Of a stretch of 64,000 nt of DNA, positions 8,375-48,503 are shown piece after piece. Origin of the DNA: an uncultured Candidatus Rokubacteria bacterium. GTDB lineage: Bacteria > Methylomirabilota > Methylomirabilia > Rokubacteriales > CSP1-6. The position numbers and the translations under genes are program-made. Below the pieces are notes generated by a model. That model did not search any database, was not told the DNA's origin, and saw nothing but the letters and a program-made list of their open reading frames with translations. How positions within the stretch are numbered: the stretch's first letter is position 1; each line of letters begins with the position of its first letter. The stretch is from assembly GCA_963747235.1 (NCBI GenBank), contig CAVVEU010000008.1:96001-160000 (forward strand), given 5' to 3'.

Positions 8375-8817
8375 GCCCGGCGCGGACGCTCGTCTCGCGG
8401 AGCCCCGAGGAGACCCAGGCCATCGGCGAGCGGCTCGGCGCGCGGCTCACCCCGGGCGCGGTGGTCGCGTGCACCGGCGAGCTGGGGGCGGGGAAGACCT
8501 GCTTTCTCCAGGGGCTCGCGCGCGGGCTCGGCGTCGCCACCGACGTGACGAGCCCGACCTTCGTCCTGATCAACCAGTACCGCGGCCGCCTGCCGGTCTA
8601 CCACCTCGACGCCTACCGCACCGGCAGCCTCACCGAGCTGGTGGACCTGGGGCTCGAGGAGATGCTGCACGGCGACGGGGTGACCGTGGTGGAGTGGGCC
8701 GACAAGCTGCTGCCGCTCCTGCCCGCGGCGCGCACGATCCACGTGCACCTGAGCGGCCTCGGCGACGAGCCGCGCGAGATCCAGATCGAGGAGCCCGTAT
8801 CCGATCCGGCGCATTGA
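8371..8817 (+). CDS. tsaE: tRNA threonylcarbamoyladenosine biosynthesis ATPase
   Basis: GELGAGKT, SPTFVL, HLDAYR, VEWADK. Confidence 0.95.
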   Translation: MSPARTLVSRSPEETQAIGERLGARLTPGAVVACTGELGAGKTCFLQGLARGLGVATDVTSPTFVLINQYRGRLPVYHLDAYRTGSLTELVDLGLEEMLHGDGVTVVEWADKLLPLLPAARTIHVHLSGLGDEPREIQIEEPVSDPAH

Positions 8818-37225: not shown

Positions 37226-37591
37226 TCAGACCTCGATCTCGATCCAGGCGCGGCGCCGGATCCGGCCGGTGAGCCGGGAGAACAGGTCGCCTATCCACAT
37301 CTGCCAGCCGTACTTGGCCCGCAGCGCGGCGTGCGCGCGCTCGATCACGCCGGGCTCGGTGACGATGCGCGCGGTCACGTCCGACCACCCGCCGCGAACG
37401 TGCCCGCGCATATCGGACGGGGCGACCCGCGCCCGTGACGAATGGCGCAGACGCTTGACCTTGCCCGAGTCGCCGGCCGTGAAGACGTAGATCTTCCCGT
37501 CCGCCGCCGCGAACCAGACCGGCGTCTTGACCTCGGCTCCGCTGCGACGAAACGTGGCCAGACTCAGATAGCGATGGCGGTCGAGCGGCAT
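37226..37591 (-). CDS. PPOX-class, probably F420-dependent oxidoreductase
   Basis: LSLATFRRSG..VKTPVWF, GKVKRL, KYGWQ. Confidence 0.85.
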   Translation of the reverse strand: MPLDRHRYLSLATFRRSGAEVKTPVWFAAADGKIYVFTAGDSGKVKRLRHSSRARVAPSDMRGHVRGGWSDVTARIVTEPGVIERAHAALRAKYGWQMWIGDLFSRLTGRIRRRAWIEIEV

Positions 37592-37592
37592 G

Positions 37593-38702
37593 TCAGGCGA
37601 GCCCGAGCGATCGGGCCACGGTCTCGAGGTGCAGCGTCGCGTCGCCCGCATCCAGACCGGCCGCGAGGATGCGCTTGTGGAAGAGATGGAGCGGGTGCTC
37701 CTCGCTGTAGCCGATGGCGCCCATGATCTGGTGCCCGCGGCGGGCCACGCGCAGGCAGGCCTCGCCGCCGTAGGCCTTGGCCGCGGCGATCGCGGCGCCG
37801 GCGTCGGGACGGCCCGATTCGAGCTTCCAGGCGGCTTCCCACATGAGCCAGCGCGCGCTCTCGACGTCGCGGAACAGGTCCGCGCAGGCGTGCTGGATGG
37901 CCTGGTAGCCGCCGATGGGCCGGCCGCCCTGGACGCGCACGCGGGCGTGCTCCACGCAGAGCTCGAGGACACGCTGGGCGGCGCCGGCCATCTCGGCGCT
38001 CCGGGCGAGGGCGCCGATGCGAAACGCGGGGGCGAGCAGCGCCCAGCCGTCTCCGGGCGCGCCGAGCAGGTCGTCGGCGCGGGTCTCCACGTCGGTGAGC
38101 TCGACCTCGAAGAGCTTGTCGCCGGTCATGCTGTCGAGCGGGCGCGCGGCGATGCCGGCGCGGTCCATCGGGAGCAGGAGCGCGGTCGGTCCGGCGGCGG
38201 ACCGCCCGAGCACGATCACGTCGGTGGCCACGTGCGCGTCCTGGACGAAGAGCTTGCGTCCGCTGAGGCGGCCGGGGGCGGAGACCGGCAGGGTCAGCGC
38301 GTCCGGGTCGAGCCGTCCCGACTCCTCGAGCACGGCGAGCGCGCAGATCCGCTCGCCCAGGGCCAGGGCGGGGAGGAGGGCCTGGGCGCGTCGGCCGCCG
38401 GCCGCGGTCAGCGCGGTGGTCGCGACGACGGCGCTCGCGATGAACGGGCTCGGGAAGCAGGCGCGTCCCAGCTCCTCGACGAGGGCCAGCGCGTCGCCGA
38501 CCGAGCCGCCGCTGCCGCCCAGCTCGGTCGGGACCAGGAGGCCCGGCCAGCCGAGCGTCGCGATCTCCTTCCACAGATCGGCCGCGAAGCCGCGCGGGTC
38601 GAGCGCGATCGCCTGCACACACTCGATCGGGCACCGCTGCTGCAGCAGCGCGCGCGCCGATTGCTGCAGGAGCTGCTGCGACGGCGAGAACGCGAGATCC
38701 AT
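37593..38702 (-). CDS. Acyl-CoA dehydrogenase family, beta-type partner subunit
   Basis: ACAD fold, RPIGGYQAIQH, HQIMGAIG; lacks usual catalytic motifs. Confidence 0.85.
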   Translation of the reverse strand: MDLAFSPSQQLLQQSARALLQQRCPIECVQAIALDPRGFAADLWKEIATLGWPGLLVPTELGGSGGSVGDALALVEELGRACFPSPFIASAVVATTALTAAGGRRAQALLPALALGERICALAVLEESGRLDPDALTLPVSAPGRLSGRKLFVQDAHVATDVIVLGRSAAGPTALLLPMDRAGIAARPLDSMTGDKLFEVELTDVETRADDLLGAPGDGWALLAPAFRIGALARSAEMAGAAQRVLELCVEHARVRVQGGRPIGGYQAIQHACADLFRDVESARWLMWEAAWKLESGRPDAGAAIAAAKAYGGEACLRVARRGHQIMGAIGYSEEHPLHLFHKRILAAGLDAGDATLHLETVARSLGLA

Positions 38703-39882
38703 CAGGCGCGGGCCCGCGGCTCGGCGGGCAGGCCGAGGGCCCGCACCGCGATGGTCGTGCGCTGGATCTCGGACGTCCCGCCCGCGAGCGTGTGGCCCCA
38801 GCTCGTCTGGTACTGGTGCTCGATCTCGCCGCGGAGCCGGGCCCAGCGGGAGCCGGCGCGCAGGACTCCATAGGGCCCGAGCAGCTCCATGCCCATCGCG
38901 AGCACGCGCTGGCCCAGCTCGTCGGCCATGACCTTCGCGGCGGAGACCGGGCCGGTCGCGGGCAGGCCGCGCTCGATGAGCCAGGCGGCGCGGAGGAAGA
39001 GCGCGCGGAGGGCCGCGACCTCGGTCGGCGGCGTGGGCGAGCCGCCGGCGCGCCACCGCGTCCCCGGGCGTGGCGGCGTTCACGTACTCGACGAGCAGGC
39101 CCAGGATCCGTCGCAGGAACGGGCGCCTTGTAGAAGCGCCCCCAGAAGCGGTCGGTGTCGAGGCCCTTCAGGAGCTGGTTGAAGCCCTCGCCGGGCTTGC
39201 CGAGCACCCAGTCGCGCGGCACGCGCACGCCGTCCATGAAGATCTCGTAGTGGTAGACCCGGCCGGTCAGGCTGCGGATCGGGCGCACGTCCATGCCGGG
39301 CAGCCGGTTGTCGACCATCAACATGGTGAGGCCGCGGTTGCGAGTGGACGCGGGATCGGTGCGGGCGAGCACGGTGCCGTAGCTCGCGATGCCCGCGTGG
39401 CTCGACCAGATCTTGCGGCCGTCGAGCACCCAGTGATCCCCCTCGAGGCGGGCGTGGGTCTTGAGCGCGAGCAGGTCCGAGCCCGCGTCGGGCTCGCTGT
39501 AGCCCTGCCAGAACGTGGCCTCGCCGCGCGCGACGAGCGGGAGGATCTCGCGCTGCAGGGTCTCGGAGCCATTGCGGATGATGGAGTCGGCGACCTGCAG
39601 GCAGCCCGAGAGCGGGCCGAAGGGCGCGCCGGCGGCCGCCAGCTCGTCCAGGAGGATCAGGAGGTAGCTCATCGGCCGCGCCTCGCCGCCGTGCTCGCGC
39701 GGCCAGGCCATGCTGAGCCAGCCGCGCTCGCCGAGCGCGCGCGTGAAGGCCCGCGAGTGGGCGCCGGAGCCATAGCCCGCGTCGGTGCCGTCCTCGGGAA
39801 ACGTCTCCGGCGGATGGGCGTGGAGAAACGCCCGCACCTCGTCGGTGAAGGCCTGCTCGGAGCCGGAGAGCCCGAAGTCCAT
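38702..39882 (-). CDS. Acyl-CoA dehydrogenase family, alpha-type subunit; frameshifts 39030-39120
   Basis: GYSEPDAGSDL, KIWSS, GGTSEIQR. Confidence 0.87.
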
Positions 39883-41089: not shown

Positions 41090-41539
41090 ATGGCGCGCTT
41101 GACGATCAACGGCCGATCGCTCGAGGTCAACGTCAACCCCAACACGCCGCTCCTGTGGGCCATCCGGGAGCAGGCGGGGCTCACCGGGACCAAGTACGGC
41201 TGCGGGATCGCCCAGTGCGGCGCCTGCACGGTGCACGTCGACGGCGTCGCGGTCCGCTCCTGTGTGATGCCGGTCGCCGCCGTCGCGGGCAAGAAGATCA
41301 CCACCATCGAGGGCCTGGCCACCGGCGCCGTCCTGCACAAGGTGCAGAAGGCCTGGCTCGACCACGAGGTGCCCCAGTGCGGCTACTGCCAGGCGGGCAT
41401 GATCATGGCGGTGGCGGCGTTGCTGAAGGACAAGCCCAGGCCGACCGACGCGGATATCGACGCGCGGATCACCAACATCTGTCGCTGCGGCACGTTCCAG
41501 CAGGTTCGTGAGGCCATTCACGCTGCGGCCAAGGCCTGA
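41090..41539 (+). CDS. 2x[2Fe-2S] small subunit of xanthine oxidase-family molybdoenzyme (IorA-like)
   Basis: [28 protein letters not shown]. Confidence 0.93.
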
Positions 41540-41553
41540 GGGGGGTGGACATC

Positions 41554-43737
41554 ATGATCACCAGGACTCCGAAGATCAATCGCCGCTCCTTCGTCGTCGG
41601 CAGCGTCGCGGTCGGCGCGGGTCTCGCGCTCGGCCTCAAGATCCCGTTCGGCACGGAGGTCGTCCGCGCGCAGGACGGCTCGCCCGAGGTCACCGCGTGG
41701 GTGGTCATCCGCCCGGACGATACCGTCGTGATCCGGATCGCGCGCTCGGAGATGGGACAGGGCACGCTCACCGGTCTCGCCCAGATGGTCGCCGAGGAGC
41801 TCGAGTGCGACTGGTCGAAGGTGCAGACCGAGTACCCGACGCCCGGCCAGAGCGTCAAGCGCAAGCGCGTGTGGGGTGACTTCTCCACCGGTGGCAGCCG
41901 GGGCATCCGCACGTCGCACGAGTACGTCCGCAAGGGCGGGGCCACCGCGCGCGAGATGCTGATCCAGGCCGCGGCCGACGCCTGGAAGGTTCCCGCCGCC
42001 GAGTGCAGCGCCGCCAACAGCGTGATCACCCACAAGACCTCGGGCCGCACCACGACCTACGGGAAGGTGGCGGAGGCCGCCGCCAAGCTCACGCCGCCCG
42101 CGAACGTGGCGCTCAAGGACCCGAAGGACTGGAAGCTCATCGGCAAGTCGGTCAAGCGCCTGGACACGATGGCCAAGCTGACCGGCGCGCAGGTGTACGG
42201 GTTCGATCTCAAGCTGCCCGGGATGCTCAACGCCGCGATCAAGGATTGCCCGGTCTTCGGCGGCAAGGTGAAGAGCCTTCGAGGCGACCAAGGTCAAGGG
42301 GATGCCGGGAGTCCGGCACGTGCTCCCGGTTGGCGATTCGGCGGTGGCGGTGGTGGCCGACACGTGGTGGGAGGCCAAGACCGCGCTCGACGCGCTGCCC
42401 ATCTCCTGGGACGAGGGCCCCAATGCGAAGGTCTCGAGCGCGACGATCGCGGACATGCTGAAGGAGGGGCTCGACGCCGACCAGGCCTTCGTCAACAACC
42501 AGAACGGCGACGCAAGGCCGCCATCGGCGGGCGCGGCGAAGAAGGTCGAGGCGGTTTACGCGTATCCGTTCCAGAACCACGCGCCGATGGAACCGATGAA
42601 CGCGACGGCCAGGTACACCCCGGACCGGTGCGAGGTCTGGGTGCCCACGCAGAACGGCGAGGCCGCATTCGCGGCGACGCTGTCGGCGTCCGGGCTGCCG
42701 GCCGACAAGTGCGAGGTCTACAAGATCAACCTGGGCGGCGGGTTCGGCCGGCGCGGGGCCTTCCACGACTACGTCACCCAGGCCGTCCTGATCGCCAAGC
42801 AGATCCCGGGCATCGCCGGTGAAGCTCCTCTGGTCGCGCGAGGAGGACATGTTGCACGGAAGGTATCACCCGGTCATGCAGGCGAAGCTGACCGGCGCCT
42901 CGATGCCGAGCGGCAACCTGGTCGGGCTGCACATGCGCCTGTCGGGGCAGTCGATCCTCAGCGGACGTGTTCCCGCAGATGCTCCAGAACGGGCAAGGAC
43001 TCCTGACCTTCCAGGGCCTGCACAAGAGCGGGGACTTCGCCATCGGCTACACGGTCCCGAATCTCCTGATCGACCACGCCATGCGCAACACCCACGTCCC
43101 GCCGGGCTTCTGGCGCGGGGTGAACATCAACCAGAACGCGATCTTCCTCGAGTGCTTCATGGACGAGCTCGCCCATGCGGCCGGCCAGGATCCGCTCGAG
43201 TTCCGGCGCAAGCTGATGGCGAACCACCCCAAGCACCTCGCGGTGCTGAACGCGGTGGCCGACCGGGCCGGCTGGGGCAAGCCGGCGCCGCAGGGGGTGT
43301 ACCGCGGGCTGTCCCAGATGATGTCGTTCGGCAGCTACGTGGCGGCGTGCGCCGAGGTCTCCGTCAAGGACGGCAACAAGGTGAAGGTCCATCGCATCGT
43401 CGCCGCGACCGACACCGGGTACGCCGTCAACCCGGCGCAGATCGAGCGCCAGATCGCCGGCTCGTTCGTGTACGGCCTCTCCGCGCTCTTCATGGAGGAG
43501 TGCACGGTCAAGGACGGCCACATCGAGCAGACGAACTTCCACGAGTACGACTCCATGCGGATCGCGCAGATGCCGAAGGTGGAGGCGATCGTCATGCCGT
43601 CCGGCGGCTTCTGGGGCGGCGTCGGCGAGCCCACGATCTGCGTGGCGGCGCCCGCGGTCCTGAACGCCTTCTTCGCCGCGACCGGCAAGCGCCTGCGCAC
43701 GGTTCCGCTGAAGCACCACGGCGTGACCCTGGTATAA
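41554..43737 (+). CDS. Molybdopterin-binding large subunit (IorB / isoquinoline 1-oxidoreductase beta-like), Tat-type leader; several frameshifts 42280-42970
   Basis: NRRSF, SEMGQG, TGGS, HAPMEP, GGGFGRR, WSREED, GGVGEP. Confidence 0.9.
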
Positions 43738-43741
43738 GCCC

Positions 43742-44032
43742 GTGATCGGCAGGGCCCTGGCCGCGGCGATCGGGATGGCCTCGATCGCCGCGGCGGTGGC
43801 GTCGGCGGAGCCTCCGGCCGGCGCCGCGGCGTGCTCGGGTTGTCACCCGGCCTCTCCACGGGTGGCGTCGCCCGTGCCTCGACTCACCGGGGTCGATCAG
43901 GCGGCGATCGTCCGGGCCCTCCGGGAGTTCCGCTCGGGGCAGCGTCCGGCCACCGTGATGGACCGGATCGCCAAGGGCTTCACGGACGACGAGATCCAGG
44001 CCCTCGCCGCCTGGTTCGCCACGCAGAAGTGA
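43742..44032 (+). CDS. Monoheme cytochrome c (FccA-like)
   Basis: Signal peptide, CSGCH, TVMDRIAKG. Confidence 0.9.
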   Translation: MIGRALAAAIGMASIAAAVASAEPPAGAAACSGCHPASPRVASPVPRLTGVDQAAIVRALREFRSGQRPATVMDRIAKGFTDDEIQALAAWFATQK

Positions 44033-45303
44033 AGGCCGGCCGCCGCGCGTTCATCGGGCTCGGCGTCGCGGCCACCGCCTCGGCCGCCTTCCGCCCGGTC
44101 CGGGCGCTCGCGCAGGGCGCCGCCCCGCGCGTCGTGGTCGTCGGAGGCGGGTTCGCCGGCGCGAGCTGCGCCCGCGCCCTCCGCCAGGCCGCGCCGCGGG
44201 CGGCCGTCACGCTGGTCGAGGCGAACCCGACGTTCACCGCCTGCCCGTTCAGCAACGCGGTCATCGGCGGCCTGCGCGAGCTCTCCGCGCAGCGGTTCAC
44301 GTACGAGCGGGTCGCCGCCGACGGCATCACCCTGGCGCGCGCGCTCGCGACCGGCGTGGACGCGCAGGCGCGATCGGTCACGCTCGCGGACGGCGCGCGC
44401 CTGCCCTACGACCGGCTGGTGCTGGCCCCCGGCATCGACATGCGCTGGGGCGCGCTGCCCGGCTACGACGAGGCGGCGGCCGCCCAGATGCCGCACGCCT
44501 GGCGGGCGGGCGAGCAGACCGCGCTGCTGCGCCGGCAGCTCGAGGCGATGGACGACGGCGGCCTCGTCGTGATCTCGGCGCCCGCCAATCCGTTCCGCTG
44601 CCCGCCCGGGCCCTACGAGCGGGCCAGCCTGATCGCGCACTACCTCAAGACGAGGAAGCCGCGGTCCAAGCTGATCATCCTCGACGCCAAGGACGCGTTC
44701 TCCAAGCAGCGCCTGTTCCAGGCCGCCTGGGCCGAGCTGTACCCGGGCCTGCTCGAGTGGGTGCCGCTGTCCAAGGGCGGCAACGTCACCTCGGTGGACG
44801 CCGCGACGCGCACGCTCGTGACGGACTTCGGGCGGCACCAGGCGAAGGTGGCCAATGTCATCCCGCCGCAGAAGGCGGGCCGCATCGCCGAGGTGGCCGG
44901 CGTCGCCGACCGCACCGGCTGGTGCCCGATCGATCCGGTGACGTTCGAGTCGAAGCTGCAGGCCGGCATTCACGTCATCGGCGACGCGGCGATCGCGGGG
45001 GCGATGCCGAAGTCGGCCTTCGCCGCGAACGCGCAGGCCAAGACGTGCGCGGCGGCGGTGGCGCGGCTCCTCACCGGCGCGGTCCCGTCCACGCCCAAGC
45101 TGATCAATACCTGCTACAGCCTGGTCGCGCCCGACTACGGGATCTCGGTCGCCGGGGTCTACCAGCCGTCCGGCGGGCAGCTCGCGGAGGTCCCCGGCTC
45201 CGGAGGCGTCAGCCCGGCGGACGCGCCGCGCGCGACGCGGGCCGCGGAGGCCGTGCTCGCCGAGGCGTGGTTCCGCACGATCACCGGCGAGGTATTCGGG
45301 TGA
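44029..45303 (+). CDS. fccB: Flavocytochrome c sulfide dehydrogenase flavoprotein (FccB/SoxF)
   Basis: Tat RRAF, GGGFAG, CPFSN, FRCPPGPYERA, MPKSA, NTCYS. Confidence 0.92.
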   Translation: MKAGRRAFIGLGVAATASAAFRPVRALAQGAAPRVVVVGGGFAGASCARALRQAAPRAAVTLVEANPTFTACPFSNAVIGGLRELSAQRFTYERVAADGITLARALATGVDAQARSVTLADGARLPYDRLVLAPGIDMRWGALPGYDEAAAAQMPHAWRAGEQTALLRRQLEAMDDGGLVVISAPANPFRCPPGPYERASLIAHYLKTRKPRSKLIILDAKDAFSKQRLFQAAWAELYPGLLEWVPLSKGGNVTSVDAATRTLVTDFGRHQAKVANVIPPQKAGRIAEVAGVADRTGWCPIDPVTFESKLQAGIHVIGDAAIAGAMPKSAFAANAQAKTCAAAVARLLTGAVPSTPKLINTCYSLVAPDYGISVAGVYQPSGGQLAEVPGSGGVSPADAPRATRAAEAVLAEAWFRTITGEVFG

Positions 45304-45722
45304 ACCGTCCGGCGTGGATGACCGTGGTCGCCGCGGTCTGCTGCCTGGCGGGGACGGCGCATGCCAGCGACGCCCTCCCGCAATCGCTCACCGGCGCCAA
45401 GGGTGATGCCACGCGCGGCCGCGCGATCGTCGCCAGCCGTCAGGTCGGCCTGTGCCTGCTGTGCCACAGCGGCCCGTTCCCGGAGGAGCGGTTCCAGGGC
45501 AACCTCGCCCCCGACCTCACGGGGGCGGGGACGCGCTGGTCCGAGGGCCAGCTCCGGCTCCGGATCGTGGATTCCAGCCGGCTCAATCCCGCGACGATCA
45601 TGCCGGCGTATCATGTGACGAACGGATTGGCGCGGGTGGCGCCGGCCTGGCGGGGCAAGCCCGTCCTGAGCGCCCAGCAGATCGAGGACGTGGTGGCCTT
45701 CTTGATGACGCTGAAGGACTGA
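45300..45722 (+). CDS. soxX: SoxX c-type cytochrome
   Basis: GDATRGRAI, CLLCH, GNLAPDL, TIMPAY. Confidence 0.9.
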   Translation: MNRPAWMTVVAAVCCLAGTAHASDALPQSLTGAKGDATRGRAIVASRQVGLCLLCHSGPFPEERFQGNLAPDLTGAGTRWSEGQLRLRIVDSSRLNPATIMPAYHVTNGLARVAPAWRGKPVLSAQQIEDVVAFLMTLKD

Positions 45723-45726
45723 CCGG

Positions 45727-46203
45727 ATGGACCGTCGAGCGTCGCGTCGCGAGTTCCTGCGGGCCGCCGGCGGCGTCGCGGCCGGCCTGGGGCTCGGGTC
45801 ACTCGTCGCGGTCCGGCCCGCGCGCGCCACCCCCGCCGAGATGGAAGACGCCATCCGCAAGGTGATCGGCTCCCCGACGGTCACCCCCGGTCGGGTGACG
45901 CTCGATCTGCCGCCCCTCATCGAGAACGGCAACGCGGTGCCGCTCACGGTGTCCGTGACGAGCCCGATGACCGGCGCCGATCACGTGCGGGCGATTCACG
46001 TCTTCACGCAGAAGAACCCGCAGCCCAATGTCGCGAGCTTCCACCTGGGGCCGCGCGCGGGCCGGGCGAAGGTGGCGACCCGTGTCCGGCTCGCCGACTC
46101 GCAGATGGTGATCGCGATCTGCGAGCTGAGCGACGGGACCTTCTGGTCGGACAGCGCGGACATCGTGGTCACCCTCGCGGCGTGTCTCGAGGACGGGATC
46201 TAG
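45727..46203 (+). CDS. soxY: SoxY-related carrier with non-canonical arm (VTLAACLED)
   Basis: Tat SRREFL, ENGNAVP, KNPQP, TRVRLA; C-terminal Cys not in GGCGG. Confidence 0.88.
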   Translation: MDRRASRREFLRAAGGVAAGLGLGSLVAVRPARATPAEMEDAIRKVIGSPTVTPGRVTLDLPPLIENGNAVPLTVSVTSPMTGADHVRAIHVFTQKNPQPNVASFHLGPRAGRAKVATRVRLADSQMVIAICELSDGTFWSDSADIVVTLAACLEDGI

Positions 46204-46205
46204 CC

Positions 46206-46526
46206 GTGGCGAGCGTGCTGATCAACGTGCCCCCGCGGGCCAAGCGCGGCGAGATCATCGAGATCAAGACCCTGATCTCGCACACGATGGAGACGGGGTT
46301 CCGCCGCACCCAGCTCGGCGCGGTGATCCCCCGCGACATCATCCGGCGGTTCGCGTGCACCTACAACGGCACCGAGGTCTTCCGCGCCGAGCTCCACCCG
46401 GCGATCTCCGCCAATCCCTTCATCGTGTTCTCGACCATCGCCGTCGAGAGCGGCACGCTCGAGTTCCAGTGGACCGGCGACAACGGCTTCTCGGTGACGC
46501 AGTCGGCCGCCATCCTTGTCGAGTAG
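46206..46526 (+). CDS. soxZ: SoxZ
   Basis: LISHTMETG, AISANP, WTGDNG. Confidence 0.9.
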   Translation: MASVLINVPPRAKRGEIIEIKTLISHTMETGFRRTQLGAVIPRDIIRRFACTYNGTEVFRAELHPAISANPFIVFSTIAVESGTLEFQWTGDNGFSVTQSAAILVE

Positions 46527-47298
46527 GAGCCGACTCGCCGCCGCGGCGGTGGCGCTCGCGTTCGCGGCGTCGGCGTTCGCGGCCGAGATCCCCCGCGCCG
46601 ACCGCCGCTCCGGCTACGACTTCATGAGCCGCGAGACCCGGGCGATGCAGGACGACGACACCGCCAATCCGGGCATGCTCTGGGTCCTCGAGGGCGGAGC
46701 GCTCTGGACCCGGAAGACCGGCTCCGCCGGCCGGGCCTGCGCCGACTGTCACGGCGACGCCCGCGTGACCATGAAGGGCGTGGCCGCGCGCCATCCCGCG
46801 TTCGACGCCGCCCGGGGGCGGCCGCTCAACCTGGAGCAGCGCATCAACGCCTGCCGGGTCGACCGGCAGGGCGCGCCGCCGCTCGCCTACGAGAGCCGGG
46901 AGCTCCTGGCGCTGGCCGCCTACGTCGCGCGCCAGTCGCGCGGGGTGCCGATCGAGGTCGCGATCGACGCGCGGACCCAGCCGTTCCTCGACGCGGGCCA
47001 GGCCATCTACCATCGACGCCAGGGCCAGCTCAATCTGGCGTGCGGCCAGTGTCACGACGACCACTGGGGGCGGCAGCTCGCGGGCAATGTCATCCCGCAG
47101 GCGCACCCGACCGGGTACCCGCTCTACCGCCTGGAGTGGCAGGGGCTCGGCTCGCTCCAGCGGCGCCTGCGCAACTGCCTGGTGGGGATCCGCGCGGAGC
47201 CGTACGAGTTCGGCGCGCCCGAGCTCGTGCAGCTCGAGCTCTACCTGATGTGGCGCGCGCGGGGGATGACCTTCGAGGCGCCCGCGGTGCGGCCCTGA
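46516..47298 (+). CDS. soxA: Diheme SoxA
   Basis: NPGMLWV, CADCH, GQLNLACGQCH, YPLYRLEW, RRLRNC. Confidence 0.92.
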   Translation: MSSRSRLAAAAVALAFAASAFAAEIPRADRRSGYDFMSRETRAMQDDDTANPGMLWVLEGGALWTRKTGSAGRACADCHGDARVTMKGVAARHPAFDAARGRPLNLEQRINACRVDRQGAPPLAYESRELLALAAYVARQSRGVPIEVAIDARTQPFLDAGQAIYHRRQGQLNLACGQCHDDHWGRQLAGNVIPQAHPTGYPLYRLEWQGLGSLQRRLRNCLVGIRAEPYEFGAPELVQLELYLMWRARGMTFEAPAVRP

Positions 47299-47311: not shown

Positions 47312-48503
47312 TCAGCCCTGCGGCCGGACTTCCTGGGCGAGGTAGTCGATCGCCGCCTGCACGCCGCCGGATCCGTGCGGGATCCCGAGCGCCGCGAGCC
47401 CCATCTCGATCGAGCCGAGGACCCCGAACATCATGGGCGCGTTGATGTGGCCCATGTGGGCGATGCGGAAGGCCTTGCCCGAGAGCTCGCCGATGCCGAC
47501 GCCGACGACCACGCCGCAGTGCGCGCGGCAGTAGGCGAGCAGGGGCTTCGGATCGCCGCCGGGCGTCCGGACGGTCGTGACCGAGTTGCTGCGCTCCGCC
47601 GGCTCGGTGATGTTCAGCGCCAGCGCCCCGCTCTCCGCCCATCGGCCGACCGCCCGGCGCGTGGCTTCTCCGAGCAGCGCGTGGCGACGGGCGGCCTGCG
47701 GGAGGCCCTCGGCGAACAGCATGTCCATCGCCTTGCGCAGGGCGAACAGCAGGTGCTGCGGCGGGGTGCCGCCGTACTTCTGGTAGTGCACCTCGCCCAT
47801 GCGGAACGTCCAGTCCCAGTAGCGCGTGCGCAGGTCGGCCTTCTGGTGGGCGGCCAGCGCCCGGTCATTGGCCGCGACGAAGGCCAGGCCGGGTGGGGTC
47901 ATCAGCCCCTTCTGCGAGCCCGACATGGCGACGTCCACCTTCCAGGCATCCATCTCGAACGGCATGCAGCCGAGCGAGGCCACGCAGTCGACCATCAGGA
48001 GGGCGGGGTGATTGGTCGAGTCGATGGCCCGACGGATGGCCGGGATATCGTTGACGACCGCCGAGGCGGTGTCGACCTGCACGACGAGGATCGCCTTGAT
48101 CTCGTGGGCGGTGTCGGCCGCCAGGCGCTGGGCCACCGCGGCCGGATCCACCGCGCGCCGCCAGTCTCCCTTCAGCACCTCGACCTTGATCCCCAGCATC
48201 CGCGCCATGTCGCCCCAGCCGAGCGCGAACACGCCGGACTCGAGCACCAGCACCGTCTCGCCTCGCGACAGGACATTGCTGACCGCCGCTTCCCAGCCGC
48301 CGTGCCCGTTGGCCGCGTAGATGAAGACGCGCCCGGCCGTGCCGGAACAGCCGGGGCAGATCCTCGAGCAGGGTCCGGGTCAGCTCGACCATGTCGCCCG
48401 AGTAGATGTCGATCGCCGGGCGGTGCATCGCCTGGAGCACGGCGTCCGGGATATTGGTCGGGCCGGGGATGCTGAGAAATTCGCGACCGTTGGCGACTGT
48501 CAT
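47312..48503 (-). CDS. Class V PLP aminotransferase (serine/alanine-glyoxylate type); frameshift near 48340
   Basis: IPGPTN, VDCVASL, GSQKGLM, FRIAHMG. Confidence 0.9.

Follow-up and report, generated by a model that had tools for sequence, protein, structure and literature searches.

The 64,000-nucleotide stretch analyzed here (hereafter the window; 71% G+C) covers positions 96,001 to 160,000 of contig CAVVEU010000008.1 from an uncultured Candidatus Rokubacteria bacterium (assembly GCA_963747235.1). On its plus strand, between positions 41090 and 47298, it carries eight genes representing an uncharacterized variant of the Sox system. This variant was noticed in print in 2013, and the window adds a member from the Rokubacteria, in a genus without detectable SoxB. 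The genes combine, in this order, the two subunits of a molybdenum (Mo) hydroxylase of the xanthine oxidase family (iorA, iorB), a small cytochrome c (cyt c), a sulfide dehydrogenase-type flavoprotein (fccB), and four Sox-type proteins (soxX, soxY', soxZ, soxA), with SoxY' being a carrier whose cysteine arm differs from that of canonical SoxY. The constant core of this module is IorAB together with SoxY'Z, and its conservation strongly supports a predicted functional coupling of the Mo enzyme and the carrier.

Conserved association of IorAB with the SoxY' carrier

The distribution of the module was assessed in two surveys. A scan of 251 sampled genomes of the class with the TIGR04487 profile (cut-off 172) returned matches above the cut-off in 50 genomes. 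The resulting class survey was based on 48 loci, i.e., 45 fetched loci with up to 10 kb per side, the window itself, and the loci of two relatives (G013, G020), with two unpublished genomes excluded. For the public scan, an alignment of SoxY' was used at one genome per species, and the best 80 of at least 575 related stretches were evaluated. The class loci were searched with the proteins of the window and the intact IorB of a further relative (G014). The two sets of loci overlap in the Rokubacteria.

Within the class, iorB was located directly upstream and in the same order in all 32 loci hosting at least 4.5 kb upstream of soxY', and in the six loci where iorB was not visible, the available sequence stops short of 2.4 kb upstream. 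The genes fccB, cyt c, and soxX were present in 41 out of 41 loci with enough upstream sequence, soxZ and soxA in 46 out of 46. The best 80 public loci belong to Rokubacteria, Alphaproteobacteria (Xanthobacteraceae, Reyranella, Pseudolabrys, Bradyrhizobiaceae), and Betaproteobacteria (Burkholderiales). Applying a strict distance rule, iorB was found upstream in 55 of the 57 among them with at least 4.5 kb of upstream sequence, a number rising to 56 if an insertion is allowed, as in an alphaproteobacterial metagenome-assembled genome (MAG) contig with approximately 2.3 kb between soxX and soxY' and iorAB present beyond (L137). The single true exception of the 57 is another alphaproteobacterial MAG contig (L132), which carries cyt c-fccB-soxXY'ZA and no iorAB in 8 kb upstream. 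Thereby, iorAB is the most constant neighbor of AAC-arm soxY genes across three phylum-level groups. The first-pass annotation of the window had named a lack of such conservation as grounds for refuting its reading, and this objection clearly fails. Its mention of similar gene orders in Alphaproteobacteria proved accurate for Xanthobacteraceae and Reyranella and, by the description of its cluster, for Starkeya novella (PMC3797975), with the window itself being of rokubacterial origin.

Three layouts were distinguished among the best 80 loci: the eight-gene arrangement, a betaproteobacterial arrangement without cyt c and fccB, and a minimal one consisting of iorAB-soxY'Z. A soxA gene behind the first soxY'Z is missing from 8 of 71 of these public loci. 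Five of them (L118, L120, L130, L140, L145) are minimal loci, in which every cytochrome has been dropped. The other three (L100:10919-15820, L134:2879-7555, and L144:5369-10501) lie on Burkholderiales-type contigs and host a second paralogous set directly downstream of iorAB-soxY'Z, comprising iorAB, soxX, a soxY with an ESACLD arm (...VTESACLD(M/Q)S), soxZ, and soxA. Here, enzyme and carrier look as if they had been duplicated and diversified together. Since the minimal loci as well as the second paralogous set keep iorAB with a SoxYZ-type carrier, the Mo enzyme and the carrier constitute the constant core.

Clustering of open reading frames (ORFs) in the flanks of the 80 loci revealed no conserved gene beyond the eight. 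An accessory transporter, regulator, or hydrolase was rejected as a candidate, with the next commonest flank family occurring in only 14 of the 80 loci; its leader sequence leads us to guess at a periplasmic substrate-binding protein of Burkholderiales. An apparent SoxX-SoxY' fusion, represented by frames of approximately 320 amino acids in one genus, was discarded as well, its upstream part being an out-of-frame reading of soxX.

The IorB orthologue group is narrow, with a mean column identity of 77% among 54 sequences, and forms one clade in a quick tree. Rokubacteria share 83–84% IorB identity with Burkholderiales MAGs. In the tree, all 16 Rokubacteria-type rows form one clade (Shimodaira-Hasegawa-like approximate likelihood ratio test, 99) nested among betaproteobacterial rows, and the Alphaproteobacteria are placed more basally. 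This topology, rooted by long-branched paralogues, hints at a cross-phylum transfer of the module. The taxon labels given by the submitters seem to be at odds with sequence relatedness for eight loci (L084, L096, L118, L120, L129, L133, L134, L144), the doubtful labels being Gemmatimonadales, Limnocylindria, Bordetella parapertussis, Enterobacteriaceae, Asaia bogorensis, and Streptomycetaceae. For instance, L096 and the contig of G020 are one and the same, and the genome collection assigns G020 to the genus of the window. As a consequence of such inconsistencies, submitter labels are unfit for defining the host range.

Relation to SoxB, SoxCD, and canonical Sox

The absence of soxB and soxC from the window, reported by the first-pass annotation, extends to the genome (88% complete, searched apart from 16,000 bases), in which the best matches amount to 44.7 bits for SoxB (cut-off 550) and 81.4 bits for SoxC (cut-off 420). 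No SoxB match at an E value of 1e-60 was detected in this genome or in 20 other sampled genomes of the genus, two of which have a completeness rating of 100%. As a consequence, the module cannot be regarded here as a duplicate of a resident Sox system. Two module-carrying genomes without a SoxB match are rated 99–100% complete. Neither SoxB nor SoxC was found in the flanks of any of the 48 class loci or the best 80 public loci, in a search that detected the control locus (L157).

On genome level, SoxB is encoded elsewhere in 38 of the 50 module-bearing genomes of the class compared with 45 of the 201 others, and SoxC exceeds its cut-off in 25 of the 50 compared with 24 of the 201, according to a cross-tabulation made by hand, which includes the unpublished genomes G116 and G233 and in which related genomes are not independent. 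The module is mostly found in sulfur oxidizers and is neither dependent on SoxB nor complementary to SoxCD. The designation as an incomplete Sox system, put forward earlier, is appropriate for the genome of the window but not in general, considering the 38 module genomes with SoxB elsewhere. Genome G113 carries both systems. Its canonical SoxY ends in GGCGG, and its canonical Sox proteins are only 28–38% identical to those of the module, marking the latter as a separate unit. The proposal of a separate module coupling the Mo enzyme to the carrier is thus supported by comparative genomics, because iorAB is the most constant neighbor of soxY' and the module is present in SoxB-less genomes.

In G013, the closest relative of the window, a SoxC above the cut-off (571 bits) is encoded at G013:C21:1096013-1097233 and no SoxB match was obtained, with the genome of the window having neither. 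The contrast in SoxC may represent a real difference or may result from incompleteness.

Gene organization and competence of the encoded proteins

All eight genes are separated by gaps of 2–5 nt or share GTGA or 11-nt overlaps. They form one translationally coupled operon, encoding a self-contained periplasmic oxidation module. The operon starts with iorA (41090–41539), whose ATG is preceded by a GGGAGG-like stretch and whose product is the small [2Fe-2S] subunit of an IorAB-type Mo hydroxylase (Fer2_2 93.8 bits, Fer2 38.7 bits), 93% identical to its G013 orthologue and lacking a signal peptide. The large molybdopterin subunit is encoded by iorB (41545–43737), with MoCoBD_1/2 matches on pieces in three frames. 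It is followed by cyt c (43742–44032), the product of which has 96 amino acids, one CSGCH motif, and weak Pfam cytochrome c matches below the cut-off. This small monoheme protein is likely the cytochrome subunit of a flavocytochrome. The corresponding flavin subunit, of the flavocytochrome c sulfide dehydrogenase (FCSD) type, is encoded by fccB (44029–45303; FCSD_central 166.9 bits, FCSD-flav_bind 93.1 bits). Its GTG start overlaps the TGA of cyt c, and a further GTGA overlap joins its stop to the start of soxX (45300–45722), encoding a monoheme cytochrome with a CLLCH motif (TIGR04485 83.9 bits, cut-off 61). The carrier gene soxY' (45727–46203) matches TIGR04487 with 214.4 bits (cut-off 172), the C-terminal arm of its product reading ...VVTLAACLEDGI instead of ...GGCGG. 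Its partner soxZ starts at 46206 (or 46182) and ends at 46526 (PF08770 97.3 bits; TIGR04490 86.3 bits, cut-off 76), and soxA (46516–47298) encodes a diheme cytochrome with the motifs CADCH and CGQCH and a distal cysteine in RLRNC (TIGR04484 222.6 bits, cut-off 110; PF21342 140.3 bits).

These data agree with most of the first-pass annotation. The strand, the tight junctions, and the coordinates were borne out, and searches with Pfam and NCBIfam profiles returned the same gene families. The proposed twin-arginine (Tat) leaders are reflected by motifs in IorB (INRRSFVVGS), FccB (GRRAFIGLG), and SoxY' (SRREFLRAAGG), although the Pfam TAT_signal scores of 19.7 bits (IorB, E 7.7e-4) and 18.5 bits remain below the cut-off of 22.7. 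Hydrophobic Sec-type leaders are present on all three cytochromes and absent from IorA. A gene for a flavin adenine dinucleotide (FAD)-binding medium subunit was likewise not found among the eight contiguous genes, as had been stated. In the description of the eight genes, positions and identities hold, but iorB is not one open frame, which had been overlooked.

By their kept motifs, the components look catalytically competent. For intact IorB orthologues, the nearest solved chain is the large subunit of an aldehyde dehydrogenase (8gy3_C; E 1.7e-74, full length), with an identity of about one third as estimated by eye from the alignment. The motifs GGGFGRR and GVGEP align with this chain, and the IorB residues G394, F397, G398, R399, R400, and E691 are kept without exception in all 54 sequences; the glutamate of GEP is presumably the catalytic base, as known for the family. 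FccB matches solved sulfide dehydrogenase flavoproteins (5n1t_A, E 2.1e-146; 1fcd_A, E 2.5e-123), with its cysteine-bearing stretches TACPFSN, FRCPPGPYERAS, and NTCYSL being aligned. We take these cysteines to be the FAD-linking one and the redox-active pair, following the roles known for 1FCD. The SoxA of the module (SoxA') aligns over its full length with diheme SoxA (1h31_A, E 2.7e-55); both CxxCH motifs are matched, as is the cysteine of RLRNC, which we assume to be a heme ligand. SoxX, SoxZ, and SoxA exceed the curated NCBIfam cut-offs for true Sox proteins. SoxY' falls short of the model for true SoxY (TIGR04488 112.2 bits, cut-off 125) and is a member of TIGR04487, a curated but uncharacterized NCBIfam family named “SoxY-related AACIE arm protein”. 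Its Cys153 is aligned with the carrier cysteine of 2ox5_Y, its arm reads AAC-L-E-D-G-I, and none of 60 aligned sequences deviates from the pattern A-C-x-E (A152, C153, E155).

Frame breaks in iorB

Three-frame translation showed that the coding path of iorB runs in frame 0 to approximately position 42276, in frame +1 to approximately 42813, in frame +2 to approximately 42963, and then again in frame 0 to the stop. The shifts are caused by single-base insertions at 42276, 42813–42815, and 42963, none of which occurs in the orthologues of G013, G014, G015, and G020, and are accompanied by a compensated −1/+1 pair at 42512/42526. In G014, iorB is an intact open frame of 730 residues from stop to stop, corresponding to a protein of approximately 727 residues. 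We consider these frameshifts to be most likely errors of an indel-prone assembly, since comparable breaks of the reading frame occur throughout the window and purifying selection is still evident in iorB.

To distinguish gene decay from assembly errors, the G+C content of codon positions (GC3 phase) was compared at indels of a net length not divisible by three between the window, up to its last approximately 200 bases, and the 92%-identical G013. Among the 64 listed indel events, the phase switch is confined to the window in 28 and to G013 in 21, shared by the two in 10, and missing from either in 5. The iorB gene accounts for only 3 of the 28 window-only switches, and 13 further ones show a GC3 of at least 0.90 on either side. 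Both genes flanking the operon are affected. The acyl-CoA dehydrogenase (37564–39882) is cut in frame, with N-terminal and middle domains only, and the class-V aminotransferase (47312–48253) is also cut in frame, starting at profile position 104. These truncations coincide with the window-only switches at 39025/39123 and 48341, respectively. The ratio of nonsynonymous to synonymous substitution rates (dN/dS) of the frame-corrected iorB versus G013 is 0.21 overall and 0.16–0.20 in two long segments past the frameshifts, with the other genes of the cluster ranging from 0.13 to 0.42. The genome itself is a 42-contig assembly, and its closest named relatives are MAGs.

The alternative of a true and very recent pseudogene, by which the module would be dying in this organism, appears improbable. 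It can draw on the three uncompensated insertions plus a compensated pair within 2.2 kb, none of the insertions being shared by the four relatives, and on a break density two to five times the window average. The latter also counts against an assembly artefact: three breaks in 2.2 kb correspond to a Poisson probability of approximately 0.02–0.10 at 0.26–0.5 breaks per kb. However, many other genes, both flanking ones among them, also show window-only frame switches, G013 has 21 phase switches of its own, dN/dS stays low past the frameshifts, and the remaining seven genes of the operon are intact. Among public sequencing runs carrying sequence words of the window, soil metagenomes with partial matches only were found (best share 0.38).

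Phase-switching single-base indels are spread throughout positions 8800–64000 of the window, and one of the G013-only events splits soxZ of G013. Due to these isolated indels, ORF-based readings of this assembly need frameshift-aware tools.

Putative function of the module

The first-pass annotation had offered two candidate mechanisms, a Mo enzyme acting on a SoxY-tethered adduct or a supply of sulfur to the Mo center. Tentatively, we favor a function in which IorAB oxidizes a sulfur adduct held on the cysteine of SoxY'. FccB would oxidize sulfide and/or SoxX'A' would attach it oxidatively to Cys153 of SoxY', giving rise to a carrier persulfide. In two-electron steps, IorAB could then transfer water-derived oxygen to this carrier-bound sulfane sulfur, taking the place of SoxCD in the textbook pathway, and the electrons would pass via the two [2Fe-2S] clusters of IorAB to the c-type cytochromes. 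Release of the oxidized sulfur would have to proceed without SoxB, perhaps by thiolysis or, in the form of sulfite, from an unstable S-sulfinate. In the structure of SoxB with SoxYZ, the glycine arm of the carrier threads a narrow channel; the bulkier, acidic arm of SoxY' would thus suit another enzyme. Taken further, and with somewhat greater reserve, IorAB may be the first xanthine oxidase-type Mo enzyme acting on a carrier-tethered substrate and may constitute, together with SoxY'Z, a periplasmic route independent of SoxB and SoxCD, by which soil and freshwater bacteria of several phyla oxidize sulfide-derived sulfane sulfur and which is counted as “incomplete Sox” in metagenome surveys today. 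If the Mo enzyme indeed acts on the carrier, the Sox carrier principle would be extended to a second molybdoenzyme family, and the chemistry of the xanthine oxidase family to a new reaction type.

A complex of IorB (residues 40–726), SoxZ', and SoxY' (residues 36–158) of locus L075, based on alignments of our own, was predicted with a score of 0.83, compared with 0.60 for the best of three controls. A score of 0.60 was still obtained in the control without IorB. Of 80 solved complexes, 58 reach the mark applied to this score, as do 2 of 110 mismatched pairs. At least 51% of contacts are shared between the prediction runs, with a predicted local distance difference test value of at least 78 for the partners. 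All confident contacts listed are those between SoxZ' and SoxY'. They depict the SoxYZ heterodimer known from textbooks, whose success may be due to its similarity to solved structures. The mark was thus passed solely via this expected interface, and the score does not bear on a docking of the arm into IorB.

Several points weigh against an oxidation of carrier-bound sulfur. A replacement of SoxCD predicts the module mainly in SoxC-less genomes. The candidate role of IorAB as a stand-in where SoxCD is missing was rejected, as there is no such complementarity, with SoxC in 25 of the 50 module genomes versus 24 of the 201 others and SoxB in 38 of the 50. Furthermore, we know of no member of the xanthine oxidase family that oxidizes sulfur or acts on a protein-tethered substrate, and the release of the product from the carrier without SoxB is pure conjecture. 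Finally, the equivalent cluster of Starkeya novella is described as very weakly expressed with thiosulfate, methanol, or glucose (PMC3797975).

The likeliest alternative, although improbable in our assessment, is a carrier holding an organic or organosulfur group, e.g., an aldehyde as thiohemiacetal on Cys153 or a thiol as mixed disulfide formed via SoxX'A', on which IorAB would perform the C-H hydroxylation usual for its family. The aldehyde dehydrogenase subunit 8gy3_C (E 1.7e-74) as nearest solved relative of IorB and the kept generic hydroxylase motifs are in line with such a substrate. TIGR04557, a weak match here, describes a SoxYZ-like carrier tied to quinoprotein dehydrogenases, by which a partnership of carriers and non-sulfur dehydrogenases is already represented among curated families. 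The Starkeya novella cluster, according to its description, is also not induced by thiosulfate (PMC3797975). On the other hand, the extended modules recruit sulfur enzymes, namely a sulfide dehydrogenase and a SoxA with the active-site cysteine of the thiosulfate type, and the neighborhood contains no conserved transporter or aldehyde-producing enzyme. The enrichment of the module in SoxB genomes, subject to the relatedness of the genomes counted, also speaks for sulfur.

Quite improbable is a role of SoxY'Z as periplasmic persulfide donor, loaded by FccB and SoxX'A', which installs or repairs the Mo=S ligand of an IorAB whose own substrate is free and unrelated, which corresponds to the second mechanism offered by the first-pass annotation. 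Enzymes of the xanthine oxidase family need this terminal sulfido ligand, which is labile, and to our knowledge no periplasmic system for its repair has been described. A donor function would account for the carrier, rather than the cytochromes, being the constant partner of IorAB, and for SoxB being dispensable. However, the carrier is bound to the one narrow orthologue group of IorB described above, and other IorAB paralogues within the same loci and genomes come without a carrier, whereas a general maintenance factor should serve many of them. Six accessory genes would also be a large outlay for cofactor repair. The least probable alternative is a merely shared electron wiring, with IorAB as an ordinary periplasmic dehydrogenase that passes its electrons to the cytochromes of the operon, beside Sox-like proteins running a separate partial oxidation of thiosulfate or sulfide: the operon does supply three cytochromes and a cytochrome c is the normal partner required by enzymes of the IorAB type, as in the 8gy3 complex, but SoxXA and SoxYZ cannot turn over without SoxB in the known pathway, and the five minimal loci keep iorAB-soxY'Z without any cytochrome, leaving the carrier as the constant partner of IorAB.

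Comparison with known systems

With the canonical Sox pathway (Kelly-Friedrich), the module shares a SoxXA-type pair with both heme motifs and the distal cysteine, the position of the carrier cysteine, and the periplasmic location. It differs in the carrier arm (AACLEDGI instead of GGCGG), in the lack of SoxB and SoxCD in the fetched flanks, and in its Mo enzyme, which belongs to the xanthine oxidase instead of the sulfite oxidase family. Complex 8gy3, which we take to be the membrane-bound aldehyde dehydrogenase of acetic acid bacteria, presumably resembles the module in being composed of a Mo subunit, a [2Fe-2S] subunit, and a cytochrome c acceptor with no FAD subunit; here, however, the partners are a carrier protein and Sox cytochromes rather than a dedicated triheme subunit. 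In respect to FCSD (5n1t, 3vrd, 1fcd) and SoxEF, the match of FccB with its cysteine motifs and the small c-type cytochrome encoded just upstream are common features. Unlike in these systems, the genes sit in an operon with a Mo hydroxylase, and the cytochrome has one heme motif and scores below the Pfam cut-offs. From TIGR04487, SoxY' shows no difference on protein level, having both the score and the A-A-C-[ILV]-E arm, with the family offering a name without a function.

The closest described system is the second sox cluster of Starkeya novella, soxX2Y2Z2A2F2 (Snov_1982-1977) with a xanthine oxidase-type Mo enzyme (Snov_1975/1976), reported by Kappler and Nouwens in 2013 (PMC3797975). By the description given in that paper, it hosts duplicate SoxAX and SoxYZ, a SoxF-like flavocytochrome, and the Mo enzyme within a single operon lacking SoxB and SoxCD, a gene content corresponding to that found here. 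The copy in the window differs in being located in Rokubacteria (phylum Methylomirabilota), and both the orthology and the arm of the Starkeya carrier rest on descriptions. As worded there, the authors considered that their cluster may be functionally insignificant or, alternatively, relevant under different conditions (PMC3797975). The conservation found in our surveys argues against a lack of functional significance. In B. diazoefficiens, a second soxY, which may or may not be of the AAC type, is mentioned as dispensable for thiosulfate oxidation in the introduction of PMC5748708. Literature searches on the level of titles and abstracts revealed, among the papers listed, none on the cluster besides the Starkeya description, which is congruent with the statement of the first-pass annotation that no function had been assigned.

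Metagenome surveys count matches to soxX, soxY, soxZ, and soxA as thiosulfate oxidation. The module is probably miscounted thereby, because three out of its four Sox-type proteins pass the models for true Sox proteins, yet it never occurs beside SoxB in the loci surveyed and is present in SoxB-less genomes. It is common in soil lineages, with 50 of the 251 sampled genomes of the class and at least 575 related public loci. Its function is directly testable, since cultivable carriers of the module exist.

A second variant SoxYZ pair

A different combination of a SoxYZ-type pair with a molybdoenzyme was observed outside the window, on the minus strand of G000 contig C40:324000-337000 (L160). Its SoxY-like protein ends in VTVAGCAA and matches TIGR04488 with 108.5 bits, i.e., below the cut-off. 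The pair lies beside a fragment of a molybdenum bis-pyranopterin guanine dinucleotide subunit, a fused 4Fe-4S/NrfD protein, a cytochrome c, and an FccB-like gene, followed by a flavoprotein of the fumarate reductase type. Sub-cut-off SoxY matches and FccB-like matches found on the same contigs elsewhere suggest that this set is conserved in the genus.

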